From Laspinema olomoucense D3c (lineage in GTDB: Bacteria > Cyanobacteriota > Cyanobacteriia > Cyanobacteriales > Laspinemataceae): DNA of 64,000 nt. Each line of letters begins with the position of its first letter. Position 1 is the stretch's first letter. The notes beneath the pieces are model-generated. The model was not told where the DNA came from. It saw nothing but the letters and a program-made list of their open reading frames with translations, and searched no databases. Positions 2,912 through 27,927 of this stretch are shown here, piece by piece. Location of the stretch: the NCBI RefSeq assembly GCF_025370725.1, contig NZ_JAMXEZ010000006.1. One strand, written 5' to 3'. The translations under genes and the position numbers were made by a program.

Positions 2912-4543
2912 TTACTCGCCGATATCTGAGTTTGATACCACCAAAACTGGAAGGCGGCCCCCCCGTAAAACCCCTTTTAAAACCGACTCTACTGCCACCC
3001 CTTCTCCCTCAGAATTAGGGGATTTCTCCACTACAATGGCGGTAACCGGATGAGCTTGCGACCAAGCCAGAATTGTTTCTACCACTGCACCTTTTTGGGT
3101 AACAAACTGATGACGAATATCCGCTAAAACTTCCTGAATTATCTCCTGAATTGCTTGAATTTCTCCTAAATTTTCTTCGGGGAACACATACAAAACAATC
3201 GCCTCTCCATGACTACGGCGAGCTAAATCTGCTGTTTGTTTCAAAACTGCCATAGCCCGAGGGGAACTCTCCACCACTGCCAAAAATAGAGTCCGACCCT
3301 CAACCGTCACTTTTGTTGGATCTACTGCTCCTTTTTTAAGCAATTTTGGAGCAAAAGTCGGAATTGCCCAAGCCCCCAAAGGAGCGGTCACTAAAATTGC
3401 CCAGGCGGCAACGGCTAAAATAATTTCACCCCCTTCAATGCCGTAGGCTAAAGGTAATGCACCCAAGGCCGCTTGTACTGTTGCTTTTGCTGAATTTCCG
3501 GGCAAGAGGAACAGTTTTTCTTGCCAAGTCCAATTACTTCCTACGGTGGAAAGTGTCCACCCCAGGGTTCTCCCGATTAATAAACCCACGGCTAAAATAG
3601 TCAACCCCGGTAAGAACATTTCTCCCAAAACTTGTAATTGAATACTGGCTCCCATTAACACAAATAAAACAATTTCTGCCACAATCCACAGGGTATTAAA
3701 TCCATTGCGGAGTCGGCGGGCTAGGGGTGCATCCAGTTTGATTAAAAAGAATCCCATCGACATCACGGCTAAATAACCAGAAAAGTAAGGAAATTCGCGA
3801 GCAGCAATCACGGTAAAGGCGGCTAAGACTGAGGTAATTAAAACATCGTGGACGGGATTTTTACTCCAGCTTTGCCGTTCTAGCAGGGAAACTAATAATG
3901 CGGCAGCTAAATAACCGGCAAGGGTTCCTAAAACTACCTGCATAATCGCTTGCAGGGGAAGTAAAACCAGTGGATGTAAGGCCAGACCCAAGAGGCGAAT
4001 TTCCGGCGTGGTTTCGCCTTGTTGTAGGAAATTTAACAGTAAACTGAAGAGTAGTAAGAGTACAACATCGGAAAGGGCAGACCCGGTTAAAATGGCATCG
4101 GGAATGCCTTTTTTGACGCCCCAACCCAATTGTTTGAGACGCAACATTCCCGGGACAATGACGGCGGGAGATTCGGGGGAAATAATGCAACCGAGGAGCA
4201 ACCCGGTTAAGAGGTCAAATTGGAAGAGAAACATAGAAGCAATGGCGATCGCCCCGGTTTCCAGGATAGCGGGTAAAATGCCCAATCGCAGGGCCACGCT
4301 TCCCTGTTGCGCCAGCTTATCGCGATCGAGTCCGAGTCCGGCTTTCATCAGGATAATCATCACCGCCAGGGTCCTTAAATCATCGGCAGCGGCGAGAATT
4401 CCCGGTTCTAGGCGATTTCCCACTTCCGGACCGAGGATGATTCCGACCAAAATCATGCCAATGAGCGGGGGTGCACCGAGGCGACGGGCGAATTGACCCG
4501 CAAAAAAGCCCATCCCTAAGATCCAAATGGTACTGATTAACAT
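2912..4543 (-). CDS. Na+/H+ (cation:proton) antiporter of the CPA1/NhaS type with a C-terminal universal-stress-protein (UspA) domain
   Basis: 543 aa: about 12 TM helices with Na_H_Exchanger-like motifs (GPEVGNRLEP, GIPDAILTGSALSDVV), then a soluble about 140-aa tail (TLFLAVVESSP...AIVLYVFPEE...VTAIVVEKSP...LPVLVVSNS) typical of Usp/adenine-nucleotide alpha-hydrolase. Confidence 0.8.
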   Translation of the reverse strand: MLISTIWILGMGFFAGQFARRLGAPPLIGMILVGIILGPEVGNRLEPGILAAADDLRTLAVMIILMKAGLGLDRDKLAQQGSVALRLGILPAILETGAIAIASMFLFQFDLLTGLLLGCIISPESPAVIVPGMLRLKQLGWGVKKGIPDAILTGSALSDVVLLLLFSLLLNFLQQGETTPEIRLLGLALHPLVLLPLQAIMQVVLGTLAGYLAAALLVSLLERQSWSKNPVHDVLITSVLAAFTVIAAREFPYFSGYLAVMSMGFFLIKLDAPLARRLRNGFNTLWIVAEIVLFVLMGASIQLQVLGEMFLPGLTILAVGLLIGRTLGWTLSTVGSNWTWQEKLFLLPGNSAKATVQAALGALPLAYGIEGGEIILAVAAWAILVTAPLGAWAIPTFAPKLLKKGAVDPTKVTVEGRTLFLAVVESSPRAMAVLKQTADLARRSHGEAIVLYVFPEENLGEIQAIQEIIQEVLADIRHQFVTQKGAVVETILAWSQAHPVTAIVVEKSPNSEGEGVAVESVLKGVLRGGRLPVLVVSNSDIGE

Positions 4544-4895
4544 GGCTCATGCTCCTGAACAGGTGTAGAGTGGCTGATCCAGGAGTGGATTGAGCACGCG
4601 CCCTACCTCCCGGCATTCAGCCCGGACAGGTAGGAGCCATCAGCCCTTCAGCCCCCCATCGGGATCGCTGAATCGGCGGTTATGGCGAGCTCCATCGCCT
4701 TCAATCTTAAATCAGCACTTAATATAGCATGAATTTCTGTAAGAATCCATAGATTGACTCATTTTTTTATGGGACAGAATCACTCAAAAATCATCCCCCT
4801 GCTGCCAGAATATCTTTCTGGAGGTAGAATCCACGGGAGGATTAAGTTTTGTAAAATTCAGAGCATAACGAGGGAATTTTACAGGAGTTTTTTTC

Positions 4896-11825: not shown

Positions 11826-11845
11826 GTTGATAAAAACCCGCGTAT

Positions 11846-11883
11846 CAAAACCGGATTCATCTCTCCGATTGAATCCGGTTTTG
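11846..11883. terminator. Bidirectional intrinsic terminator between convergent genes
   Basis: 14-bp perfect stem CAAAACCGGATTCA / TGAATCCGGTTTTG with a 10-nt loop. A T-run follows on the plus strand (within the stem end) and GGGTTTTTA follows on the minus strand. It sits between the stops at 11825 (+) and 11900 (-). Confidence 0.6.
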
Positions 11884-11899
11884 ATACCTGGATTGGGGA

Positions 11900-14245
11900 T
11901 TAAAGTTCAATAATTTTTCTAATTAAGCGTAATAAATCGCGGGTTTTATAGGGTTTGGATAAATAGCTTGGGGAACTATTTTCTCCCGATTCTGAGAAGG
12001 GAAGATTGCTGACGAGTCCGCTCACGGCTATAATTTTAACCGAGGGATTAATTTTTTGGAGGGCTTTTAAAGTGAGTGCTCCATCCATTAATGGCATCAT
12101 CATATCCAGAATTACCACAGCAATTTCTGAGGACCGTTGACTGTAGAGAGAAATGGCCTCCATACCATCAGCGGCAGTTAAAACTTTATAGCCAAATTTT
12201 TGCAGGAGAGCTTGGGCAATTTCGCAGATGGCAACTTCATCATCTACGACTAAAATTAACTCACCTGCTCCAAAAGGGAGTTCGGTGGGTTCTGAAATGA
12301 GAGCTTGAGTTCCCTGAATTGCAGGCAAATACACGGTAAAGGCGGTGCCTTTACCCACTTGGCTAGAAACCAATAAAAACCCGCCATGATTTTTAACGAT
12401 GCCTCGAACTGTCGGCAATCCTAATCCTGTGCCTTTTCCTAATCCTTTGGTGGTAAAAAAAGGTTCAAATAATCGCTCTAAAATTTCTGGAGAGATGCCG
12501 GTTCCGGTATCTCTAACCGTGAGTTTAATATAAGAGCCAACTTTAGCCTCGGGGTCTAGGATTAAGTCGGATTTGGTGAGGATGATATTTTGCGCTTCAA
12601 TGGATAAAATGCCGCCGTTTGGCATGGCATCGCGAGCATTGACGGACAAATTCATCAGGATTTGATGGAGATGAGTTGGGTCCCCAGAAATTAACCAGAG
12701 TTTGGGGTCGATCGCCGTGGAAATTTCAATGGATTTGGGAAAAGTTTCGCGGGCGATCGCCGTAATTTCATCAATTAGGTGTTTGAGTTGGAGCAGGGCG
12801 CGATCGCCATCTAACCCTTTAGCAAATGAAAGCACTTGTTTGAGGAGGTCCGCGCCGCGCAAGGTATTAATTTCCAGCATAGAAATTAAGCGCATTTGCT
12901 GGGCGTTTAACGGGAACATTTGGAGCAGTTGCACCGCCCCCAAAATAGGGGTGAGAATGTTGTTTAAATCATGGGCAATGCCACTGGCTAAGGTGCCGAT
13001 ACTTTCCAGGCGTTGGGCGCGCAAAAACTGGGCTTCTAGCTGTTTTTTCTCGGTAATATCCGTATTCACCGCGAGGATGGAATAGGGGCGATCGCGCTCG
13101 TCCCGCACCAGGGTCTGGCGACTGGCAACAATGATAGATCTACCTGCTTTGGTGACTTGTTCTAACTCTCCGTGCCATTCGCCAGTGGTGAGGACCGTTT
13201 GCTCAGCGCTTTTGAGTTCTTCAGCGCTTTTAACATCAAAAAGGTGACTGCTGGTTTGGGCGATCGCTTCCTGGCGGGTCCATCCGTATAATTTTTCTGC
13301 CCCTTTATTCCAAAATAGAATATTTTGCTCAAGGTCTTTGACCCAAATTGCATCGGTGGCAACGTCCAGGAGAGCTGCCTGCTGGCGCACCTGTTCTTCG
13401 GCGCGTTTACGCTCAGTGATATCATATAACGCCCCAACAATTTCTTCACCCTGCTTCTCTCCCTTGCAAATCAGCTTCATTTCATCCCGCACCCATCGAT
13501 AGCTGCCGTCGGGATACTGGAACCGATACTCACTCAGGGAATAACCCGTCTGGTACAACTGTTTGAGGCTGGAGAATAGCTCCGGTGTATCATCCGGATG
13601 AATGCGATCGCGCCAAAACGAAGAGTCCCCTAAAATTTCTTCCGGTCGATATCCCAAATGTTCGAGAATATTCTCACTCACAAAGGTGGGACAATAGGGG
13701 TGATCAGGGGGGCAGGTATAAATCACCGCTGGACTAGAGGACAACAAGTATTGAAGCTGGGTTTGGGTAGCCATCAGCGCTGATTCAGTCCGTTTTAATT
13801 CTTTAATTTGATGTTGGAGTTCTGACTCCCGCAGGACCCGTTCTGTGACATCTTCAATGGTGGCGATCGTGCCAATCACCTGGGATGCTTCTACAATGGG
13901 AGCAATTTTCGCACTTTGTAGCATATAAGGCACTCCCTTATAAACATCCCCCGGGAGCATCGGTAACAAAAACCCATGTAAGCGCTGAGAGAGGAGGGCG
14001 ACTTGTCCCGCTAGAGCTTGGTAAAAAAATCGATCTAATCGCCGGTGCTTTAATTCCGGATAAATTTCGAGTAAATTTCTACCCACCACCCGATTCACAT
14101 TCAACCCACTATAAAGTTCCAGCCAATGATTCCAACTTTGGATATTCAACTCTGCATCGGTCGTAAATATCCCTCGGTCTGCTAAGTCATTGACCCAATG
14201 AAGGAGATCCTGATCAGAAGTGGGAGGGTCGGTGAAACTGCTCAT
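11900..14245 (-). CDS. PAS-domain sensor hybrid histidine kinase (PAS x2-3, HisKA, HATPase_c, C-terminal REC)
   Basis: 781 aa. PAS signatures, HisKA H-box (GIAHDLNNILTPILG), N/G1/G2 boxes (NLSVNARDAM, DTGTGI, GTGLGL) and a C-terminal receiver (LVVDDEVAICE...ILDMMMP). Confidence 0.85.
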   Translation of the reverse strand: MSSFTDPPTSDQDLLHWVNDLADRGIFTTDAELNIQSWNHWLELYSGLNVNRVVGRNLLEIYPELKHRRLDRFFYQALAGQVALLSQRLHGFLLPMLPGDVYKGVPYMLQSAKIAPIVEASQVIGTIATIEDVTERVLRESELQHQIKELKRTESALMATQTQLQYLLSSSPAVIYTCPPDHPYCPTFVSENILEHLGYRPEEILGDSSFWRDRIHPDDTPELFSSLKQLYQTGYSLSEYRFQYPDGSYRWVRDEMKLICKGEKQGEEIVGALYDITERKRAEEQVRQQAALLDVATDAIWVKDLEQNILFWNKGAEKLYGWTRQEAIAQTSSHLFDVKSAEELKSAEQTVLTTGEWHGELEQVTKAGRSIIVASRQTLVRDERDRPYSILAVNTDITEKKQLEAQFLRAQRLESIGTLASGIAHDLNNILTPILGAVQLLQMFPLNAQQMRLISMLEINTLRGADLLKQVLSFAKGLDGDRALLQLKHLIDEITAIARETFPKSIEISTAIDPKLWLISGDPTHLHQILMNLSVNARDAMPNGGILSIEAQNIILTKSDLILDPEAKVGSYIKLTVRDTGTGISPEILERLFEPFFTTKGLGKGTGLGLPTVRGIVKNHGGFLLVSSQVGKGTAFTVYLPAIQGTQALISEPTELPFGAGELILVVDDEVAICEIAQALLQKFGYKVLTAADGMEAISLYSQRSSEIAVVILDMMMPLMDGALTLKALQKINPSVKIIAVSGLVSNLPFSESGENSSPSYLSKPYKTRDLLRLIRKIIEL

Positions 14246-14282
14246 TTTACTAAGCCCTTGTTGACAGCTAACTATTACTCCA

Positions 14283-14927
14283 TTATGAAGAAAAAGAAAC
14301 GTTATGGGGTTCTATTTCCGCCTTGGCCCAGGTATCAATTTCTTCAAGTAATTTTTCTAAAGAAACCACACTCAATACCATCACTAAATACCCCTGAATT
14401 GAATTTTCCTTCATCCGAAACCCGGTATAAACCACCATTGCATAACGCATTTCCGCCTTACCAATGCTCAGAGAATGCAGTAACCCATCTAAGGCTTCTA
14501 AATGTAAACGAGGAACGGAAAAGGAGATTTGCATTTGTAACAAATTCCCGAAAACGCTCAGACAGGCGTTGAGTAAAATATTGCCAATTTCCGTCAGCAC
14601 TTCTGCCGCCGAGGCATCGAGGCGATCGCGATGGAGAGCCTGTTCAGGAGTCACTAACTCCGTCAGTTGCACCGCGCCGTCATAATTCAACAATAACAGG
14701 GCATTTCCCGAAACCCGTCCAGTAAAAATTTGCTGGACCGTGGCAATTTCCCCTTTAATAAACGTACCCAGTTTAGCGCTGAGTTCTTCAATGGGGTGAA
14801 GGGAAACCTGGGGAACCTCTAGTAAAACCCGATGACCTGTCAGTTCCGAGAGAGCCGCAGCCGTACGCGCGAAACCCATATTCAGCAGTTCGCTTAAGGC
14901 ATCCTGTTGGGCTTCTGTCAGCTTCAT
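14283..14927 (-). CDS. CheC-like CheY-P phosphatase (CheC/CheX/FliY family)
   Basis: 214 aa with both halves of the duplicated CheC signature D/S-x3-E-x2-N-x22-P: DALSELLN(x22)P and SAAEVLTEIGN(x22)P. Its start overlaps the stop of the upstream CheY-like gene (ATGA at 14924-14927). Confidence 0.65.
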   Translation of the reverse strand: MKLTEAQQDALSELLNMGFARTAAALSELTGHRVLLEVPQVSLHPIEELSAKLGTFIKGEIATVQQIFTGRVSGNALLLLNYDGAVQLTELVTPEQALHRDRLDASAAEVLTEIGNILLNACLSVFGNLLQMQISFSVPRLHLEALDGLLHSLSIGKAEMRYAMVVYTGFRMKENSIQGYLVMVLSVVSLEKLLEEIDTWAKAEIEPHNVSFSS

Positions 14928-15301
14928 CCTACCCCTCCCGGGATTCCTTTGAGGACCTGATTTACAGTATCCAGAACCGCCTCGGGATTATAGGGTTTAG
15001 TCAGATAACCCATTGCTCCGGCTGCCATCACAGAAGTCCGGGTCAGTTCTTGCAGGTCAGCAGTCGCCATGACGATGCGGGCGCGATCGTCGAAGGCGCG
15101 TAATTTTTCGAGCACTTCGGTTCCCTGCATATCTGGCATGGCTATATCCAGTAAAACAAGATCGGGTTTCTCTATATAGTAACTCTCAATGCCCATCAAT
15201 CCATCTTTGGCCTCAATAATCAAGTGGCCTTCAGTCTGGAGGATGCGTCGCAAGATTCCCCGGGAAAGGGTAGAGTCATCAACAATCAAAATTTTTGCCA
15301 T
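14924..15301 (-). CDS. Single-domain CheY-like response regulator. Start taken at the internal Met MAKILIVDD; the ORF-track start is 15334.
   Basis: Receiver motifs: ILIVDD (acidic pocket), LVLLDIAMPDM (phospho-Asp), T at 'MATAD' and K at 'YLTKP'. There is no output domain. Confidence 0.8.
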   Translation of the reverse strand: MAKILIVDDSTLSRGILRRILQTEGHLIIEAKDGLMGIESYYIEKPDLVLLDIAMPDMQGTEVLEKLRAFDDRARIVMATADLQELTRTSVMAAGAMGYLTKPYNPEAVLDTVNQVLKGIPGGVG

Positions 15302-15460
15302 TGCCTTGCGTCCTGGTATCGGATTGGCAGTCAAGCTCTAACCCTGGATTGAGGGAACTCACTTTAGAGTGGGTCCGCTTCATTTCCGCCCCAATTTGTT
15401 CATGCCCTGATCTTAACTCTGAATGGGAAGGGTGGATAGCGGTATCTTCAAAGTTCTCTT

Positions 15461-18400
15461 TCACAGGGTCGAGGCTAATTGAGCGAGGACTTTAGCTAAT
15501 TGGGCCGGTTCTACAGGTTTAGAGAGGTGTTTTTGAAAGCCTGCCAGGAGGGATTGAGCACGGTCCTCCTCTGAGGCAAAGGCAGTCAGAGCGATCGCCG
15601 GAATATGACTGTTGCTGTCACCTTCATGCTGCCGGATTTGGTGAATTAAGTGATATCCGTCTTCTCCAGGCATTCCAATATCGCTGACTAAAACATCAAA
15701 TTTGAATTGGTCCATCAGGGCGATCGCCTGGGAAACCGAAGTCACCACCCGAACCCGCACCCCATAATCTGTCAGCATCGCTTCCATTAAGTCTCCTGTA
15801 TCCGGGTCGTCATCCACCACCAACACCTGTAACCCATCCAGGGCCCACAGTTCACTCGATACACCGTCTTCCCGGGAAAAGGAAGTCTCATCGCCCTCGT
15901 CTTGTGGCGGTTTTGGCAGAATGGGTAACTGGACAATCAAGGTGGCTCCTTGGCCTTCGCCCTCACTCAAAGCCTCGACCTGGCCCCCGTGGAGTTCCAC
16001 TAGATGACGGACGATGGTCAATCCCAAGCCTAATCCACCATAGGCGCGAGTTGTAGAACTATCCGCTTGGCGGAATCCGTCAAAAATATGGGGGAGAAAG
16101 TCTGGATTGATGCCAATTCCCGTATCCTGAACCTGGAGGGTAATAAAGGAATCCGTCTGGGCGATCGCCACGGAAACTGAGCCTCCGCTAGGAGTAAACT
16201 TGACCGCATTAGACAATAAATTCCAAGCCACTTGCTGCAAGCGATCGCTATCTCCCGAAACCAAGGCGATCGCCGGGTCAAAGTTGAAATCAATATGAAT
16301 TCCCTTAGCTTCAGCCGTGGGAAGCATCGTATCCAGGGCAGCTTCCACAAGAGGAATTAAATTAACGGGACGCAGTTGTAAGCGAATTTTACCGCGAATG
16401 ATCCGGGAAACATCCAGGATATCCTCGATCAGATTAACCTGTTGTTTGGCATTGCGCTCGATGGTTTCTAATGCTTTTATCTTCGTGGTTTCATTGAGCT
16501 GGCGAGTGCGAAGCAACTGGGTCCAGCCCAGAATCGAATTGAGGGGCGTGCGAAGTTCATGGGAAACAATCGATAAAAACTCATCCTTGATTTGATTGGC
16601 TTTAACTAATTCTTCCGACTGTTGCTGCTGGAGGATGAGCGCTGCTTCCAGTTCGCGCTTATGGAAAGCCAGTTCCGAGGCGAGGACTTCTACATCAGAG
16701 CTTTGAGAGGTTAACTCCTGCTGTAACAAATCCCGCACCCGTTTAATGGAGATCGCATTCCCCACCCGCGCCCGCAGTTCTTCCACAGAAAAGGGTTTCA
16801 TCAGATAATCTTGCACCCCTTCGCGCAATAACTGTACCCGCAAATCATCATCATCTTTCGCCGTCAACATGATAATTGAAACATTGGCGAAATCGGGATT
16901 GCTGCGTAATAAAGACACCAGGCGATCACCCCCTATTTCTGGCATCATCACATCACTGATGATTAAATCTGGATTGAGGGTGAGTGCCTGTTCCAATCCT
17001 TGCTCCCCATTGAACGCTGTAGCAATTTGATAGTCCCGTCCCAAGATATCGCAGACAAAGCGATTCATTTCCGGGTTGTCTTCGACAATTAAAACCAGGG
17101 GTCGAGGGTCATTCGGGACCAGAATCCGGGGAGATGTCTCCACTTCTAGCTTCAGTTCCGCGATCGCCGCTTCTGCCAGATCATCCCACAGGGAAGATTC
17201 TGAAGCCGTCTTGGGGATATCTGGAAAAACCTCCATCGGAAGCTGGACGGTAAACATCGCCCCCCCTAGAGGTGCATCCGCAACCGTAATAGTTCCCTGA
17301 TGAAGTTCTACAAATTCCTTGACAATCGCCAACCCCAACCCAGTCCCGCCAAAGCGACGGGTGCTCCCTCCTTCAATTTGGCTAAACCGCTCAAAGATGG
17401 TTTCCCGCCGTTCCTGGGGGACCCCTGGACCACTATCTTGGATGGCGATCGTCACCGGCTTATTCTCCCCCTCGGCTAGAGAGAGAGAACAGTCAATTTT
17501 GCCACCCAGGGGTGTGAACTTAAACGCATTGGAGAGTAAGTTTAAAACCACCCGCTCGATTTTTTGGCGGTCCAATTGGGTCCCCAAGGACTCCGGAGTC
17601 TGGACGGTTAAGTTAATCTCCCGTTCAAAGGCTAATGCATCAAAGTTCGCCGCTACTTGGCGGATCAAACTGGCTAAGTCCAGAGGAACTGCTGCGAGTT
17701 CCATTTTGCCAGCTTCTAGCTTAGAGATATCCAGGAGATCATTAACCTGTTTGAGCAGCATTCGGGCATTGCGTTCGATTACGAGCAAGTCCCGGCGTTG
17801 TTCGTCCAAAAGTTGGCGATCGCCGATCAACTTCTGAGTCGGACCTAAAATCAACGCCAGGGGGGTCCGCAATTCGTGACTGACATTGGCGAAAAATTGG
17901 CTTTTGAGTTCATCCAGTTGCTTAAGTTGACGATAGAGCGCTTGCAGTTCTTGGTTTGCCCGTTCCAGATTCAAGCGGCGTTCTTCAGACATCTGAGCCG
18001 AGTCCAATAATTTTAACGCTCTGGGGATTAACGGGGGTAAAGAAATTGCTGTGGTAACTGAGGCGAGGGCAGTGAGCAATTTGACATTTCCTGATAACCA
18101 GTAGGTGGGATTCCACAAGGTCCATACCGCTAGAAAATGGGTCATGCTACAAGCGATGATAAAGGCACCGAAGGCCAAAAACATCCAATGAAAGGGGATA
18201 TTGCGCCGCGCTTTATAAACGAAATAAGCAAGGCTGGTAGATATGGCAACATAGGATATCCCAATCAGGCTATCTGAGGTAATATGAAGCCAGACTAAGG
18301 AGGGCTTCCACAGATAACAATGGCCGTGGGGGATAAAACCCTCCTTGGCGAAGAGATTCCTCAGCAGGTCGGGCCATAGGAGGAGAGTTAAGAGGGCCAG

Positions 18401-18532
18401 GAAGCTTAATATTATACCCCTCCCTAATAAGATTTTTTGGGGCTGGCTACTGTGGGTTTGGGGGGATTTTGTTAATCCTTGTCCCTCAGCCTCTGGATGG
18501 AAAGTTGCCAGATTAAAATTAGATTGTTTCAT
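15461..18532 (-). CDS. Hybrid sensor histidine kinase with an N-terminal ethylene-binding domain (ETR1-like, 3 TM). Architecture is EBD, HisKA-HATPase, REC, HisKA-HATPase, REC.
   Basis: Residues about 85-175 align position-by-position with the Arabidopsis ETR1 ethylene-binding domain (SD..I.I.Y...I....YFV.K....P..W....FGAFI..C...TH....W...). The copper-ligand Cys and His (ETR1 C65/H69) are conserved as C-x3-H in IIACSMTHFLAVWT. Two complete kinase cores follow (HELRTP H-boxes and G-boxes) and two receivers (LVLIVEDN..., VLVVDDDPDT...). Confidence 0.8.
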   Translation of the reverse strand: MKQSNFNLATFHPEAEGQGLTKSPQTHSSQPQKILLGRGIILSFLALLTLLLWPDLLRNLFAKEGFIPHGHCYLWKPSLVWLHITSDSLIGISYVAISTSLAYFVYKARRNIPFHWMFLAFGAFIIACSMTHFLAVWTLWNPTYWLSGNVKLLTALASVTTAISLPPLIPRALKLLDSAQMSEERRLNLERANQELQALYRQLKQLDELKSQFFANVSHELRTPLALILGPTQKLIGDRQLLDEQRRDLLVIERNARMLLKQVNDLLDISKLEAGKMELAAVPLDLASLIRQVAANFDALAFEREINLTVQTPESLGTQLDRQKIERVVLNLLSNAFKFTPLGGKIDCSLSLAEGENKPVTIAIQDSGPGVPQERRETIFERFSQIEGGSTRRFGGTGLGLAIVKEFVELHQGTITVADAPLGGAMFTVQLPMEVFPDIPKTASESSLWDDLAEAAIAELKLEVETSPRILVPNDPRPLVLIVEDNPEMNRFVCDILGRDYQIATAFNGEQGLEQALTLNPDLIISDVMMPEIGGDRLVSLLRSNPDFANVSIIMLTAKDDDDLRVQLLREGVQDYLMKPFSVEELRARVGNAISIKRVRDLLQQELTSQSSDVEVLASELAFHKRELEAALILQQQQSEELVKANQIKDEFLSIVSHELRTPLNSILGWTQLLRTRQLNETTKIKALETIERNAKQQVNLIEDILDVSRIIRGKIRLQLRPVNLIPLVEAALDTMLPTAEAKGIHIDFNFDPAIALVSGDSDRLQQVAWNLLSNAVKFTPSGGSVSVAIAQTDSFITLQVQDTGIGINPDFLPHIFDGFRQADSSTTRAYGGLGLGLTIVRHLVELHGGQVEALSEGEGQGATLIVQLPILPKPPQDEGDETSFSREDGVSSELWALDGLQVLVVDDDPDTGDLMEAMLTDYGVRVRVVTSVSQAIALMDQFKFDVLVSDIGMPGEDGYHLIHQIRQHEGDSNSHIPAIALTAFASEEDRAQSLLAGFQKHLSKPVEPAQLAKVLAQLASTL

Positions 18533-18790: not shown

Positions 18791-21700
18791 TTAGATTAAG
18801 CCGGTTTGTTGGGCGATTTCGGCGAGGGCAGTTGCTAATTTCAAGGGTTCCACAGGTTTAGCAACATGAAGATGAAATCCGGCTAAAAGGGCCTGTTGAC
18901 GATCTTCTTCCCGAGCGAAAGCGGTCAAGGCGATCGCCGGAATGGGCTTAGAGTATCCCGCCTCGCGCTGGCGAATTTTGCGGATCAAACCATAGCCGTC
19001 TTCATCGGGCATTCCGATATCGGAAATCAAGATATCATGGCGCGATCGCTCGGTGGCGGCTAGGGCTTCGGCAGCAGATAAAACCACCGTCGTCTTTACT
19101 CCATATTCCGCTAGGACTTGAGCAATTAGCTCTCCCGTATCGCGATCGTCATCCACCACCAGCACCTGTAAACCGGCGAGGTTAAAGGAGTGGTTCCCCA
19201 TTGTTTTTTTGTCCCAAGTCAGGGAATCGGGATCCAAAAGAAGGTTCTGGGAGACCCCGATAGGGAGGGCCACGGTAAAGGTTGAACCTGTGTCTTCTCC
19301 CTGGCTGAAGGCATGGACGGTTCCCCCATGCAGTTCGACCAAATAGCGCACAATGGTTAAGCCCAGACCGAGACCCCCGTGGGTGCGGGTGGAGGAACTG
19401 TTGGCTTGGCGAAAGCCCTCAAAGACGTGAGGCAGGAAGTCCGGACTAATTCCCATCCCCGTATCCTGCACCCGAAACTCCATGTAATCGCCCACCCGCT
19501 CGATCGCCACCGTCACCCGTCCGCCATTGGGGGTGAATTTTACGGCATTGGAGAGCAGATTCCAGACCACTTGATGGAGGCGGCTACTATCCCCTAAAAT
19601 GGGCTGTCCGTTTGAGTTGAACTGGGTGTGGATTTCAATGGATTTGGCTTCCGCTGCCGGAGTCAGGGTGGCGATCGCTTGTTCCACCAGAGTTTCCAAA
19701 TACAACGGAACTCGGGTCAGGCGAATCTTCCCGCGCACAATCCGGGAGACATCGAGGATATCATCAATCAGGTTCACCTGATGCTTAGCATTCCGTTCGA
19801 TGGTTTCCAGGGCTTTTTGTTGCGTCTCTTCCTTCAGGGTGCGAGAACGGAGCAATTGCGCCCAGCCGAGAATGGAATTCAGGGGAGTTCGCAATTCATG
19901 AGAGACGATCGCCAAAAATTCATCCTTGAGTCGGTTGGCTTTTTCGGCGCGATCGCGGGCTTGTTCCTGGGCCTCATAGAGGTTGGCCCGGTCAATGGCC
20001 AGGGCCACGCGATCGGCCACCAGTTGCAGCAAATAGACATCTTCTGCCATGAATTCTCGCGGCGACTCGGTACTGATATGGATCACCCCGAGTACCCGGT
20101 CTTGTAAGAGCATCGGTGCGCCCATAATTGACTCTATTTTTTTGTGTCGGAACAGGGGACTAATCACTTGAGTATGAGCATCGCGCTCAATCCGCATCGG
20201 TTGCCGAGTCTGGGCAATTTTTCCCGCGAACCCTAGGCCCATCGGGATCGGGATACTGGTTGAGAGGGGTTCGTCTAAATCTAAGCCTTTTGTGGCGGTA
20301 ACGATCAGGGCCGTTCCCTCTTCGTTGACCAATAAAATTACCGCAGCATCCACTTGTAAGACAGCGGTGAGGCGATCGAGCAACTCTTCGAGCAGATCAT
20401 GGAGAGACAAAGGGGCGATCGCCACATCCACAATCGCTTGTAACCGATGCACCATAGTCGTCGCCCGTTCTGACAAAATTCGGGCCGCTTTCTCCCGTTC
20501 CAACAACTCCATGCGCTCTTGCTGTGCCTGCTTGCGTTCGTGAATGTCCGTATTTGTCCCAAACCACTTGACAATCTCCCCCTGAGAATCTCGCATGGGC
20601 ACCGCTAATCCCAGATGCCAGCGGTAAGCGCCATCGCAACCCCGACGCATTCTGGCTTCAATTTCATAGGGTTGTCCGTTTTCCAAGCAAACGGTCCACT
20701 TTTTGCGACATTCGGCCAAGTCGTCGGGATGCACGATAGGCTCCCATCCCCAGCCTAAAAGTTCCGTCGGGCTCAAGCCGGTGTACTCACTCCAGCGGTG
20801 ACTCAGGTAATCTAGGGTCCCATCCGGGAGGGCGGTCCAGACCATTTGCGGAATCGCTTCACTCAGGAATCGATAATACTGCTCGCTGGCTTCGGCTTGA
20901 GTTCGGGCGGCTTGTTCCAGTTGCAAGAGTTGAATCCGTTCCGCTTCCGCCTCTTTGAGGGGGGTAATATCGATCGCCGACCCGATGAACCCGAGTAAAT
21001 TGCCCTCGGGACTTAACCGGGGAACCCCAGTTTCTAGCATCCACCGATAGGCTCCATCGGCTCGTTGTAGGCGGTATTCTTGGGTAAAGGGTTGGCTTGC
21101 CTTCACTGCTTGTTGGTAACTCAAGACGCACTGGACCTGCTCCTCGGGATGGATCCGGTCCCGATGGTTGAGGCCAGGGTCTGCTTCTAGTAATGCCCCA
21201 ATGAAGTTTAATCCCCACTTATTTAAAAAGGTCCATTGTCCCTGGCAATCGGCTACCCACAACAGCACCGGGGCCGTATCTGCCATATCCCTGAACCGTT
21301 TTTCACTATCGCGCAAGGCTTCCTCGGCCTGTTTCCGTTGGGTAATATCGTAGCGGATGGCCAAATATTGGAAGGGCTTTCCATGACTATCTAAAAACGG
21401 TACAATTACTGTATCCACCCAATAATAAGTCCCATCTTTGGCCCGATTCTTAATTTCTCCTCGCCACACTTCCCCCTGCGCAATGGTCCGCCAGAGATTG
21501 AGAAAAAATTCTTTAGAATGATAGCCGGAATTGATCAACCGATGGTTTTGTCCAATCAATTCTGTTTGGGAATATTTAGAAATTTCCAGAAATTTTTCGT
21601 TAACATATTGAATTGTTCCTTTAGCATCAGTGGTGACAACAATCGCTGATTTATCTAACGCAAATTGGAAATCGGATAATTCTTTCAAGGTTTGTTGGAG

Positions 21701-22897
21701 GTCGGCTTCTGCCCGTTTGCGAGCGCTGATGTCCCGCACTGATGCCATCCATCCTGAGTGACCCAAATAGAGTGTCGGTTGAATAACTGCTTCTAGGATC
21801 ACCGTTGTCCCATCTTTTTTGATCCCCATCACTTCCGATGCTCCCTCCTGTGTCCATCGGCAGTCGTCCAACATTAACTCGACTGTCTCCTCGGTAAAAA
21901 TATAGGCTAAGGGCCTTCCTACCAGTTCGTCCGGGTCATATCCAAATATCTTTTCCAAGGAGGGATTTACGGCAATCATGCGATCGCCCTGATAAAATAA
22001 AATCCCTTCCACTGTTGATTCAGCGAGGGTTTTAAACCGTTGTTCACTGGCTCTGAGTGCCGCCTCTGCCTGCTTGCTTTGGGTGATATCCCGGCTAATT
22101 TTAGAGAAGCCGTAAAGATTACCTTGGTTATCGTATAAAGGCGTAATTACTTCATGGACCCAAAAGCGGGTTCCGTCCTTTCGCCGTCGTTCTCCTTCTT
22201 GTTCCAACCGTCCCTGTTCTACTGCCTGTTTTAAGTCTCGTTCCGGTTGACCTTGGGCCACTGCTTCGGGGGGATAAAAGCAGGAAAAATGTTGTCCAAT
22301 AATTTCCTCGGCTGCATAGCCTTTGAGGTGTTTTGCTCCCAGATTCCAGCTATTTACTCGTCCATCGGGCCCAAGCATATAAAGTCCATAATCTTCGATG
22401 CCCTCTACCAACAACTGAAACTGTTGTTCGCTTCGCCGAAAAGATTCAAGATGTCTTTGAGCGATTCTGGCACTTTGGGCGCACTGTTCTTTCTTTTGTT
22501 GCAATGAACCGATGGCGATCGCAATTGCCGAACCTTCCAGCAGAAATAAAATTAACCGGAATGTTTGGCCCGGACTGCTTTCTATTTGGGGATAAAGCGG
22601 AGATAAAAATAAGTAACTGCTGGCTAATCCAGCCCCCAGGGTGGCCATCAGTCCCGCTTTCGTACCCCCAAACCAGGCACTAGCCATAATCGCTGCAAAA
22701 TACACCAAAAATGGGCTTTCCCGTAAGATTAAGGGTGCTAGGGCGCTTTTAACCGCCGTGGCGAGGGTGACACTGATGAGGGCAATGCCCAGTGGGTGCA
22801 GGAATTGTAGCAATGGCCTTGAATGCTGGTTTCTGGGATAGCAAAGCTGAGGCAGTTTGCTAAACAGACGCAGGAGGACAGATGGACTGATTTTCAT
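18791..22897 (-). CDS. Large multi-sensor hybrid histidine kinase: KdpD-like TM (DUF4118) N-terminus, multiple PAS/PAC domains, GAF, HisKA, HATPase_c, REC. Exact start uncertain.
   Basis: 1368 aa. The N-terminal 4-TM region resembles the KdpD sensor TM domain. There are about 5 PAS/PAC repeats (GxxExRxRxKDG-type PAC motifs recur), a GAF-like segment, H-box AIVSHELRTPLNSILGW, and a C-terminal receiver VLVVDDDRDT...ISDIGMPDEDG. The C-terminal kinase+REC module is about 65% identical to that of the 15461..18532 kinase. Confidence 0.85.
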   Translation of the reverse strand: MKISPSVLLRLFSKLPQLCYPRNQHSRPLLQFLHPLGIALISVTLATAVKSALAPLILRESPFLVYFAAIMASAWFGGTKAGLMATLGAGLASSYLFLSPLYPQIESSPGQTFRLILFLLEGSAIAIAIGSLQQKKEQCAQSARIAQRHLESFRRSEQQFQLLVEGIEDYGLYMLGPDGRVNSWNLGAKHLKGYAAEEIIGQHFSCFYPPEAVAQGQPERDLKQAVEQGRLEQEGERRRKDGTRFWVHEVITPLYDNQGNLYGFSKISRDITQSKQAEAALRASEQRFKTLAESTVEGILFYQGDRMIAVNPSLEKIFGYDPDELVGRPLAYIFTEETVELMLDDCRWTQEGASEVMGIKKDGTTVILEAVIQPTLYLGHSGWMASVRDISARKRAEADLQQTLKELSDFQFALDKSAIVVTTDAKGTIQYVNEKFLEISKYSQTELIGQNHRLINSGYHSKEFFLNLWRTIAQGEVWRGEIKNRAKDGTYYWVDTVIVPFLDSHGKPFQYLAIRYDITQRKQAEEALRDSEKRFRDMADTAPVLLWVADCQGQWTFLNKWGLNFIGALLEADPGLNHRDRIHPEEQVQCVLSYQQAVKASQPFTQEYRLQRADGAYRWMLETGVPRLSPEGNLLGFIGSAIDITPLKEAEAERIQLLQLEQAARTQAEASEQYYRFLSEAIPQMVWTALPDGTLDYLSHRWSEYTGLSPTELLGWGWEPIVHPDDLAECRKKWTVCLENGQPYEIEARMRRGCDGAYRWHLGLAVPMRDSQGEIVKWFGTNTDIHERKQAQQERMELLEREKAARILSERATTMVHRLQAIVDVAIAPLSLHDLLEELLDRLTAVLQVDAAVILLVNEEGTALIVTATKGLDLDEPLSTSIPIPMGLGFAGKIAQTRQPMRIERDAHTQVISPLFRHKKIESIMGAPMLLQDRVLGVIHISTESPREFMAEDVYLLQLVADRVALAIDRANLYEAQEQARDRAEKANRLKDEFLAIVSHELRTPLNSILGWAQLLRSRTLKEETQQKALETIERNAKHQVNLIDDILDVSRIVRGKIRLTRVPLYLETLVEQAIATLTPAAEAKSIEIHTQFNSNGQPILGDSSRLHQVVWNLLSNAVKFTPNGGRVTVAIERVGDYMEFRVQDTGMGISPDFLPHVFEGFRQANSSSTRTHGGLGLGLTIVRYLVELHGGTVHAFSQGEDTGSTFTVALPIGVSQNLLLDPDSLTWDKKTMGNHSFNLAGLQVLVVDDDRDTGELIAQVLAEYGVKTTVVLSAAEALAATERSRHDILISDIGMPDEDGYGLIRKIRQREAGYSKPIPAIALTAFAREEDRQQALLAGFHLHVAKPVEPLKLATALAEIAQQTGLI

Positions 22898-26193: not shown

Positions 26194-27927
26194 TTAAAAT
26201 AGAAAATATCGCTGGGCCAAGGGCAACACTTGGGCGGGTTCACAGGTGAGTAATTGACCATCCGCCCAAACTTGATAGGTTTCTGGATCGACTTCAATAT
26301 AGGGCAGGGTCTCATTTAATTTCATATCCCGTTTCCCGATTTTCCGCGTGTCCGAAACGGCGATCGCCTGTTTTCGCAATCCTAACTGAGTTGGTATTTC
26401 TAACTCCAATGCCGCTTGGGAGACAAAGGTAAAAGATGTCGCCGTCCGCGACCCTCCAAAACTGGCAAACATGGGCTGAGAATGGATGGGTTGTGGAGTG
26501 GGAATACTGGCATTAGCATCTCCCATTTGGGCGTAGGCGATCGCCCCGCCTTTGAGGACGAGTTCCGGTTTCACCCCAAAAAATGCCGGACGCCATAAAC
26601 ATAAATCCGCCAGTTTGCCTTCTTCAATCGACCCCACATAATTAGCAATCCCGTGGGTAATTGCGGGATTAATTGTATATTTAGCAATATAACGCCGCGC
26701 CCGGAAATTATCATGTTCTGTGGTACTGGGAATCGCATCTTTCCGGTCATCCGCAGACAAAAACCCCCGTTGTACCTTCATTTTATGGGCGGTTTGCCAA
26801 GTGCGAATGATGGTTTCTCCCACCCGTCCCATTGCCTGAGAATCAGAGGAAATCATACTAAACGCCCCGAGGTCATGTAAAATATCCTCGGCAGCAATGG
26901 TTTCCCGACGGATGCGGGATTCGGCAAAAGCGACATCTTCTGGGATGCTGCGATCGAGGTGATGGCACACCATCAGCATATCCAGATGTTCTTCTAAAGT
27001 ATTGACTGTATAAGGTCGGGTTGGATTGGTGGAAGAGGGCAGCACATTTTTTTGGCCGCAAACCTTGATAATATCTGGGGCGTGTCCTCCGCCCGCCCCT
27101 TCCGTATGGTAAGTATGAATAGTGCGGTCTTTAAAGGCGGCAATGGTTTGTTCTACAAATCCGGCTTCATTGAGAGTATCGGTATGGATAGCAACTTGCA
27201 CATCATATTCATCAGCAACGGTTAGGCAAGTATCGATCGCCGCTGGAGTGGTTCCCCAGTCTTCGTGTAATTTTAATCCCATTGCGCCCGCGAGAACCTG
27301 TTCCACGAGGGCGCGGGGTCTGCTGCTGTTGCCTTTTCCCAGAAACCCCAAATTCACCGGGAAGGCATCGGCAGCTTGTAACATCCGGTGAATGTTCCAA
27401 GGTCCGGGGGTACAAGTGGTAGCATTTGTCCCGGTAGCGGGTCCGGTTCCACCGCCTAACATGGTGGTAATTCCCGAGGCGATCGCTACCTCAATTTGTT
27501 GGGGACAAATAAAGTGAATATGGGCATCAATTCCCCCGGCTGTGAGAATCATCCCCTCCCCGGCGATCGCCTCGGTTCCTGGACCAATAATAATATCAAC
27601 ATCATCTTGGATATAAGGATTTCCGGCCTTTCCAATTTTAAATATTTTGCCATCCCTGATTCCTACATCGGCTTTCACGACTCCCCACCAATCGAGAATC
27701 ACCGCATTGGTAATTACTAAATCTACCGCCCCGTTATCATTGGCAATGGGGGATTGTCCCATACCATCGCGGATGACTTTTCCCCCGCCAAATTTCACTT
27801 CATCGCCGTAGGTGGTAAAGTCTTGTTCAACTTCAATAAATAATTCTGTATCTGCTAACCGGATGCGATCGCCCACCGTTGGGCCGTAGGTTTCCGCATA
27901 AGCGCGGCGGTCCATTTTATAACTCAT
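26194..27927 (-). CDS. ureC: Urease alpha subunit
   Basis: 577 aa starting [34 protein letters not shown]... with the urease Ni-ligand regions ([23 protein letters not shown], carbamylated-Lys region). ureA and ureB are not adjacent. Confidence 0.92.

Follow-up and report, generated by a model that had tools for sequence, protein, structure and literature searches.

We analyzed a 64,000-nucleotide stretch (the window) of contig NZ_JAMXEZ010000006.1 from Laspinema olomoucense D3c, a filamentous cyanobacterium (Oscillatoriales, Laspinemataceae), in which a 1023-aa hybrid histidine kinase with an N-terminal ethylene-binding domain (EBD) is followed on the same strand by genes for a CheY-like receiver, a CheC-like phosphatase and a PAS-domain kinase. 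A first-pass annotation had joined the EBD kinase to its CheY-like and CheC-like neighbors in a single ethylene-sensing pathway. Comparison across genomes points to two separately inherited signaling modules that stand side by side in the Laspinema/Oscillatoria acuminata lineage, a reading to which we give a probability of about 0.7. Under this reading the co-location of the EBD kinase with CheY-CheC is a local genomic accident and not a new pathway, and an attractive but misleading inference from gene neighborhood is corrected. The CheY-CheC pair belongs instead to a three-gene unit that is widely conserved as the tail of chemosensory operons, is itself uncharacterized and is unusually well kept across phyla, whereas the EBD kinase belongs to a large uncharacterized cyanobacterial subfamily in which an EBD is tied directly to a tandem kinase core and bears a serine at a supposedly essential position of ETR1.

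Genomic linkage of the kinase and the CheY-CheC genes

Five signaling genes stand in series on the minus strand of the window, as seen in the list of open reading frames and their Pfam matches, and the block is bordered by oppositely oriented metabolic genes, an aminotransferase and HGLS at one end, FMN reductase with aldehyde dehydrogenase at the other. The most upstream gene (18791-22897) encodes a 1368-aa kinase with a DUF4118 domain, five PAS domains, a GAF domain, a histidine kinase module (HK) and a receiver (REC). After a spacer of 258 nucleotides (nt) comes the EBD dual hybrid histidine kinase (15461-18532), which consists of an extra N-terminal transmembrane (TM) helix, the EBD, HK1, REC1, HK2 and REC2, and is 100% identical to the protein deposited at NCBI as 'ATP-binding protein' of Laspinema olomoucense, although a look-up by exact sequence gave no match. 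A further 126-159 nt separate it from the gene for a CheY-like single-domain response regulator (Pfam Response_reg, E 1e-25), which is followed by a gene for a 214-aa CheC-like phosphatase with two active sites (14283-14927) and, 37 nt beyond, by that for a 781-aa PAS-PAS-HK-REC hybrid kinase (11900-14245). The three open reading frames on which the earlier interpretation was built, at 15461-18532 (1023 aa), 14924-15334 (136 aa) and 14283-14927 (214 aa), are all found on the minus strand as described. The true start of cheY is probably the conserved ATG at 15301, giving a product of 125 aa (14924-15301), rather than the TTG at 15334 that gives 136 aa; the start context ATGGC(A/C)AAAAT is conserved across genomes. 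The ATGA stop/start overlap of the cheY-like and cheC-like genes is likewise real and supports their predicted translational coupling.

The constant associations of the CheC-like protein emerge from a survey of 80 of the 272 genomic loci that carry its relatives, spanning Cyanobacteria, Acidobacteriota, a metagenome-assembled genome (MAG) of the Gemmataceae and another of the Anaerolineales. A small receiver lies directly upstream of CheC in 78 of the 80 loci, the two exceptions being contig ends, and downstream of CheC, in the same orientation, 78 of the loci have a homologue of the 781-aa PAS-HK-REC kinase. Upstream of this trio, again on the same strand, che genes are present at 56 loci, which comprise nearly all the Acidobacteriota with enough upstream flank, the Gemmataceae and Anaerolineales MAGs and several cyanobacteria. 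The Aulosira locus L023:1257-12601, for instance, has the order REC-CheA-CheW-MCP-HEAT-CheR-CheB-CheY-CheC-PAS.HK.REC according to Pfam. Such gene orders indicate that the ancestral place of the trio was at the 3' end of a CheA-CheW-MCP-HEAT-CheR-CheB operon. In the nearest cyanobacterial relatives of Laspinema it is detached from the che genes, and in Arthrospira it stands alone among unrelated metabolic genes; in the 64-kb window itself no che genes (searched by tblastn), CheD or flagellar genes were found. A literature search for CheC in non-chemotaxis two-component cassettes returned nothing specific.

The association of the trio with the EBD kinase has a quite different distribution. Among the same 80 loci the EBD kinase adjoins the trio only in L001, L008-L012, L014 and L082, that is, in the Laspinema/O. 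acuminata clade, where O. acuminata PCC 6304 has an identical five-gene arrangement; the linkage is confined to this clade and is not conserved across lineages. Outside this clade only Phormidium sp. CCY1219 has an EBD at a distance of no more than 10 kb from CheC. Conversely, CheY and CheC are absent near 11 other EBD-kinase loci (those named being L002-L007, L088, L089, L169, L170, L171 and the P0054 contig), and another MAG has the EBD kinase (L004) on one contig and the trio (L027) on a second. The more persistent neighbor of the EBD kinase is the 1368-aa DUF4118 kinase, which adjoins it in L001, L004, L088 and L171 as well.

Two of the trio-less loci belong to close relatives, namely L088, with a kinase 82% identical to that of the window, and L171 of Phormidium pseudopriestleyi FRX01, with one 87% identical. 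Both have the same flanks as the window: an aminotransferase, the DUF4118 kinase and the EBD kinase, and then directly FMN reductase, aldehyde dehydrogenase and a saccharopine-dehydrogenase-like gene. In BLASTN comparisons L088 is collinear with the window except for a jump from 15471 to 11828, and therefore the trio segment of about 3.6 kb is a clean unit of presence or absence. From this break and the gene order of L171 the segment can be placed at 11829-15470 on the minus strand, so bounded as to include the leader, cheY, cheC, the PAS kinase and a terminator.

Both ends of the segment carry candidate transcription signals of its own. At the upstream end a non-coding block before the cheY ATG (15302-15420, minus strand), of which about 115 nt are almost invariant in seven Laspinema/Oscillatoria genomes, is a candidate promoter or 5' leader, whereas the 40 nt that follow the stop codon of the EBD kinase are variable in the same seven genomes and contain a 130-nt insertion in L009. 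This pattern suits a separate promoter or leader. The block may also be a regulatory RNA of a new type; an Rfam search of the spacer between the EBD kinase and cheY matched no family. When the regions upstream of cheY in more distant genomes were aligned, the only convincing elements in common were the start codon and, possibly, a TA-rich hexamer of the -10 type. At the downstream end a strong hairpin with a U-run stands immediately after the stop codon of the 781-aa kinase (11830-11894, minus strand), as a likely, perhaps bidirectional, terminator; its minimum free energy is -35.3 kcal/mol (z -6.7), and none of 200 shuffled sequences was as stable. Since this hairpin follows the stop of the PAS kinase, the transcription unit is predicted to close after the third gene and not after cheC. 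Consensus scans of the spacers, which are weak evidence either way, found no terminator or promoter.

These observations bear directly on the proposal that the EBD kinase, CheY and CheC are co-operonic and form one dedicated ethylene phosphorelay, in which CheC ends the signal and motility or phototaxis is the output. In favor of such a relay are the common strand, the gap of only 126-159 nt with no predicted terminator, the retention of the arrangement in seven further Laspinema/Oscillatoria loci beyond that of the window, and the effect of ethylene on phototaxis in Synechocystis and Geitlerinema, which is exerted via EBD receptors (PMC6682694). The adjacency on which it depends is, however, confined to one shallow clade; the trio is missing from the two close orthologous loci with the same flanks and from nine more distant EBD-kinase loci; CheY-CheC is linked in 78 of 80 loci with the PAS kinase that follows it, and ancestrally with CheA; and a conserved upstream block and a terminator are the trio's own. 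We therefore find a dedicated pathway from ethylene to CheY unsupported, because CheY and CheC belong to a separate three-gene module, and regard the single relay as quite unlikely.

A broader version would have the whole same-strand block transcribed as one operon, with several sensor kinases converging on a single CheY and CheC acting as their common reset. This would account for the run of consecutive signaling genes between oppositely oriented metabolic genes, and for a sole non-coding promoter-like site before the first kinase matched by a sole strong terminator after the last gene; moreover, the HK2-REC2 portion of the EBD kinase shares 59% identity with the HK-REC portion of the kinase upstream. 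Yet the trio is a clean insertion or deletion relative to L088 and is missing in L171, and so the other two kinases function without it, while the gaps of 258 and 126 nt and the separately conserved leader of cheY leave room for internal promoters. On this balance a five-gene operon appears improbable to us.

It is also conceivable that in the Laspinemataceae an orphaned chemosensory output tail, made up of CheY, CheC and the PAS kinase, was captured behind the EBD dual kinase and is read through from it. If so, a copper-dependent membrane gas sensor would set the phosphorylation of CheY, CheC would control the lifetime of CheY, and the cell could achieve ethylene- or alkene-guided gliding with neither MCP nor CheA. 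We consider this scenario a long shot.

Three points nevertheless weigh against the separation of the two modules. The five genes lie on one strand with no terminator predicted between the EBD kinase and cheY, and read-through transcription is possible. In Phormidium sp. CCY1219 a different EBD kinase of 564 aa, with the canonical Pro36, is encoded at L015:11219-12913, about 1.2 kb past the end of the trio's kinase and beyond an opposite-strand FMN reductase; there is no dual EBD kinase at this locus, which lies in the same syntenic neighborhood. The presence of this second, distinct EBD kinase near a trio might point to a connection in function and not to common synteny, and counts as a weak hint for the dedicated relay. 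Finally, sequence alone assigns no phosphotransfer partner to any of these proteins. Cross-talk from the EBD kinase to CheY is accordingly possible, but the comparative evidence points elsewhere.

The ethylene-binding domain and its ligand

The N-terminal region of the 1023-aa kinase is, by every sequence criterion applied except Pro36, a bona fide ETR1-type EBD, which occupies residues 79-175 (18008-18298, minus strand) and comprises three TM helices. A search with the Pfam model ETR1_N (PF25487) recovers it with E 2e-35 and 121.3 bits, well above the cutoff of 27, over profile positions 2-97 of 97, and the superfamily as a whole numbers 8253 representatives at E <= 1e-3. For residue-level comparison we used an N-terminal sequence which we take to be that of Arabidopsis ETR1; it scores 115.7 bits against ETR1_N and places the critical D, C, H and K at their published residue numbers. 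In BLASTP (E 2e-17) and in a MAFFT alignment with 120 homologues, D87, Y94, I97, I125, C128, H132 and K151 of the kinase correspond to D25, Y32, I35, I62, C65, H69 and K91 of ETR1. The C-x3-H of the segment IIACSMTHF had thus been correctly singled out as the Cu(I)-ligand motif, with C128 and H132 opposite the helix II ligands Cys65 and His69, and the Asp25-Lys91 pair is matched by D87 and K151. This pair, together with the copper ligands, underlies high-affinity ethylene binding (PMC10266040).

The match was earlier described as residue by residue, and this is true of the seven positions just listed but not of Pro36, whose replacement by Ser98 had gone unremarked. Seven ETR1 residues (D25, Y32, I35, P36, I62, C65 and H69) are reported to be needed for ethylene binding; the Binder laboratory has used them as a benchmark for the bacterial proteins GeiEtr1/2 and AzoEtr1 (PMC6682694, PMC11819568), and the Laspinema kinase keeps six of the seven. 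D87, Y94, I97, S98, I125, C128, H132 and K151 are all invariant in the 120 closest homologues; among the 150 nearest representatives of 50%-identity clusters, the P36 position is occupied by Ser in 119, Pro in 19, Ala in 5, Thr in 4, Gly in 2 and Leu in 1. P36 is counted among the residues essential for ethylene binding in ETR1 in a passage of PMC6586836 that cites Wang et al. 2006. Because the equivalent position is an invariant Ser in this subfamily, ethylene binding by the Ser36-type EBD is plausible but unproven, and the assignment of ethylene as ligand, although favored by the domain and its aligned copper ligands, is less secure than the first-pass annotation had it.

Irrespective of how the kinase is wired, one could then propose that the EBD responds to something else that is soluble in the membrane or depends on Cu(I), for instance a different alkene, copper status or the redox state. 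The serine in 120 of 120 closest homologues and 119 of 150 nearest representatives speaks for this, as do the reports that the validated binders SynEtr1, GeiEtr1/2 and AzoEtr1 keep all seven residues and the presence of an additional invariant HGHC motif just before helix I. Set against it are the invariance of the other six residues and of Lys91, with the copper ligands and the Asp25-Lys91 pair intact; the ETR1 mutation tested was Pro36 to Ala and not to Ser; and serine is so widespread at this position that it may be the bacterial norm. We hold a ligand other than ethylene to be possible, if on the doubtful side; ethylene, or a small unsaturated molecule like it, is the probable ligand. With bacterial ethylene receptors a small and active field in which few proteins have been characterized, the subfamily poses a testable question, namely whether ethylene is bound by its Ser36 branch.

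An AlphaFold model of residues 1-300, of moderate confidence (pLDDT 68) and used for secondary structure only, places the EBD helices at 77-108, 115-140 and 144 onward, and the hydropathy profile gives strong support to helix II and weak support to the other two. Ahead of the EBD an extra hydrophobic helix, at about residues 30-52 (18377-18445, minus strand), is indicated both by a hydropathy peak and by a helix at 30-52 in the model. Between the two, N-terminal to helix I and to the Pfam boundary of the EBD, lies a P-H-G-H-C-Y motif (residues 68-73; 18314-18331, minus strand), in which P68, H69, C72 and Y73 are invariant in 40 homologues, with G70 and H71 at least 90% conserved; the motif recurs in the L015 EBD kinase. 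It could constitute an extra metal-handling or dimerization site. To our knowledge no EBD structure has been solved, and hence a PDB sequence search with the EBD gave no match.

Kinase cores, the CheC-like protein and other features of the window

Downstream of the EBD, Pfam detects two HisKA, two HATPase_c and two Response_reg domains in the 1023-aa kinase (all coordinates on the minus strand). No GAF or PAS domain was found by the Pfam scan between the EBD and the first kinase core, and the intervening linker (residues 176-209; 17906-18007), which runs from EBD helix III to DHp helix 1, has no domain match and is helical in the model, where one unbroken helix (144-236, at moderate confidence) begins as EBD helix III and extends into the H-box with His219. 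The direct helical connection of the EBD to a tandem kinase-receiver module, proposed earlier, is thus upheld. Kinase core 1 (HisKA and HATPase_c, about residues 210-440; 17213-17905) contains His219, Asn335 and Asp366, receiver 1 (about residues 478-595; 16748-17101) Asp527, Thr557 and Lys579, and kinase core 2 (about residues 645-872; 15917-16600) His658, Asn775 and Asp803; receiver 2 (residues 903-1016; 15485-15826), delimited by Pfam and the family alignment, has its phosphoacceptor counterpart at Asp951. The catalytic residues of the two kinase cores and of receiver 1 (His219, Asn335, Asp366, Asp527, Thr557, Lys579, His658, Asn775 and Asp803) are invariant in 95 homologues, which suggests that all three are active.

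This architecture had been presented as unusual. The EBD-HK-REC-HK(-REC) family has, however, more than 100 close cluster representatives in cyanobacteria, and the EBD-HK-REC-HK core is common in filamentous forms rather than unique. Most members are about 870 aa long with the arrangement EBD-HK-REC-HK; the terminal receiver is an addition found in 17 of 95, the Laspinema kinase included, and a further class of 1300-1400 aa has PAS/GAF domains inserted before the second kinase. We also considered an artefactual fusion of two genes as the origin of the 1023-aa frame, which we rejected on account of the continuity of the HK-REC-HK core in the 95 homologues. Literature searches for this subfamily, or for Laspinema and ethylene, found nothing specific, and a metagenome scan on the kinase alignment with the pattern SHELRTPL, a generic H-box, returned ordinary histidine kinases, an EBD only in L089 and no useful statistic.

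As a separate observation, HK2-REC2 (15485-16600) and the C-terminal HK-REC of the 1368-aa neighbor (18791-19990, minus strand) are 59% identical at the protein level, a likeness that suggests paralogy or an exchange of domains between the adjacent genes.

The other module has equally well-defined components. The stand-alone receiver is CheY-like, as previously stated, with a Pfam Response_reg match and the true CheYs 6ER7 and 1TMY as its best relatives in PDB. The CheC-like protein scores 31.6 bits against Pfam CheC (PF04509; cutoff 22), and a profile of its family of 14 homologues matches Thermotoga maritima CheC (1XKR/2F9Z) with E 6e-16 over the full length (residues 1-184). Both halves of the CheC signature that had been noted in it prove to be sites of the form D/S-x3-E-x2-N-x22-P that are invariant in the 14 homologues, D9/E13/N16/P39 and E109/E113/N116/P139, the second opening with Glu instead of Asp or Ser. 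The roles of the catalytic Glu and Asn are established for the CheC family (PMC3035606). Against the CheC equivalog model of NCBIfam (NF041093) the protein reaches 80.3 bits where the cutoff is 250. On these profile matches it is a genuine two-site CheC relative, but a distant member of the family rather than an orthologue of the characterized CheC.

The CheC sequences of Cyanobacteria, Acidobacteriota (Blastocatellia, Pyrinomonadaceae), the Gemmataceae MAG and the Anaerolineales MAG are about 60% identical, which is unusually high across phyla.

Taken as two modules, the genes suggest the following mechanisms. In the EBD kinase, whose domain order is established and whose catalytic residues are intact, ligand binding in the membrane would alter the autophosphorylation of HK1, which would phosphorylate its own receiver at Asp527; REC1, positioned directly ahead of the second kinase core with His658, would then gate HK2, and in this lineage HK2 might pass the phosphate to the terminal receiver at Asp951 or to another partner. 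The direction of control in this scheme is one that we infer. In the trio, where the genes are linked across phyla and the PAS kinase is the constant partner, this kinase, or a distant CheA, would phosphorylate CheY, and CheC, if it acts like other members of its family, would take the phosphate off again.

Several other features lie elsewhere in the window. At 31619-34267 the plus strand encodes an 882-aa protein homologous to the Major Vault Protein of eukaryotes (Pfam Vault repeats E 2e-67, MVP shoulder 2e-55, and Vault_2/3/4), with a CHAT-domain protein nearby at 28187-30199. The minus strand carries a fluoride riboswitch at 4624-4708 (Rfam RF01734, 51.9 bits, E 1.7e-11), upstream of an open reading frame at 2912-4543. 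At 27486-27776 on the plus strand, in antisense orientation to the urease alpha gene (26194-27927), there is a full-length Rfam match (93.9 bits) to the Helicobacter 5' ureB antisense sRNA; the match is most probably due to the conserved coding sequence of urease and not to a real sRNA.

Comparison with known systems

Like Arabidopsis ETR1 and ERS1, the 1023-aa kinase has an N-terminal three-helix EBD of the same Pfam family followed by a histidine kinase, which in ETR1 is joined to a receiver, and it keeps the equivalents of Asp25, Tyr32, Ile35, Ile62, Cys65, His69 and Lys91. It departs from them in the passage from EBD to kinase, where a GAF domain is lacking, in the Ser at the position of Pro36, in the doubling of both kinase core and receiver, in an additional TM helix at the N-terminus and in the HGHC motif that stands in place of the Cys4/Cys6 pair. 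With respect to the tandem arrangement itself, the fungal Tco2-type HK-REC-HK-REC proteins likewise contain two complete kinase-receiver units in one polypeptide; their sensor region and lineage are unrelated to those of the Laspinema kinase, and most members of the EBD family are devoid of the second receiver.

The closest functional precedents are SynEtr1 (UirS/PixA, slr1212), GeiEtr1 and GeiEtr2 of Geitlerinema PCC 7105 and AzoEtr1 of Azospirillum, which are, like the protein described here, two-component sensors that combine an EBD with a histidine kinase. SynEtr1 and GeiEtr1/2 affect phototaxis (PMC6682694), and the azoEtr1 gene is overlapped by a downstream response-regulator gene (PMC11819568). 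In all of these proteins PAS, GAF or cyanobacteriochrome modules stand between the EBD and a single kinase, and all seven ETR1 residues are reportedly kept, whereas the Laspinema kinase has direct helical coupling, the tandem HK-REC-HK-REC core and Ser36.

The CheC-like protein resembles CheC of Thermotoga maritima and Bacillus subtilis (1XKR, 2F9Z) in its full-length profile match and its two E-x2-N-x22-P sites; it departs from the characterized CheC in falling far below the equivalog cutoff, in the Glu that begins site 2 and in its pairing with a PAS hybrid kinase. It is not a FliY, as it has no FliN domain, nor is it CheX-like, as it has two sites. The ancestral context of the trio, CheA-CheW-MCP-HEAT-CheR-CheB-CheY, presumably resembles the gene content of the Che7 system of Myxococcus xanthus, one of the systems with alternative cellular functions. 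Che7 is associated with a HEAT-repeat protein (PMC9040617). Unlike Che7, the operons found here end with CheC and the PAS-HK-REC kinase, and of this arrangement the Laspinema locus keeps only the tail, detached from CheA and MCP.

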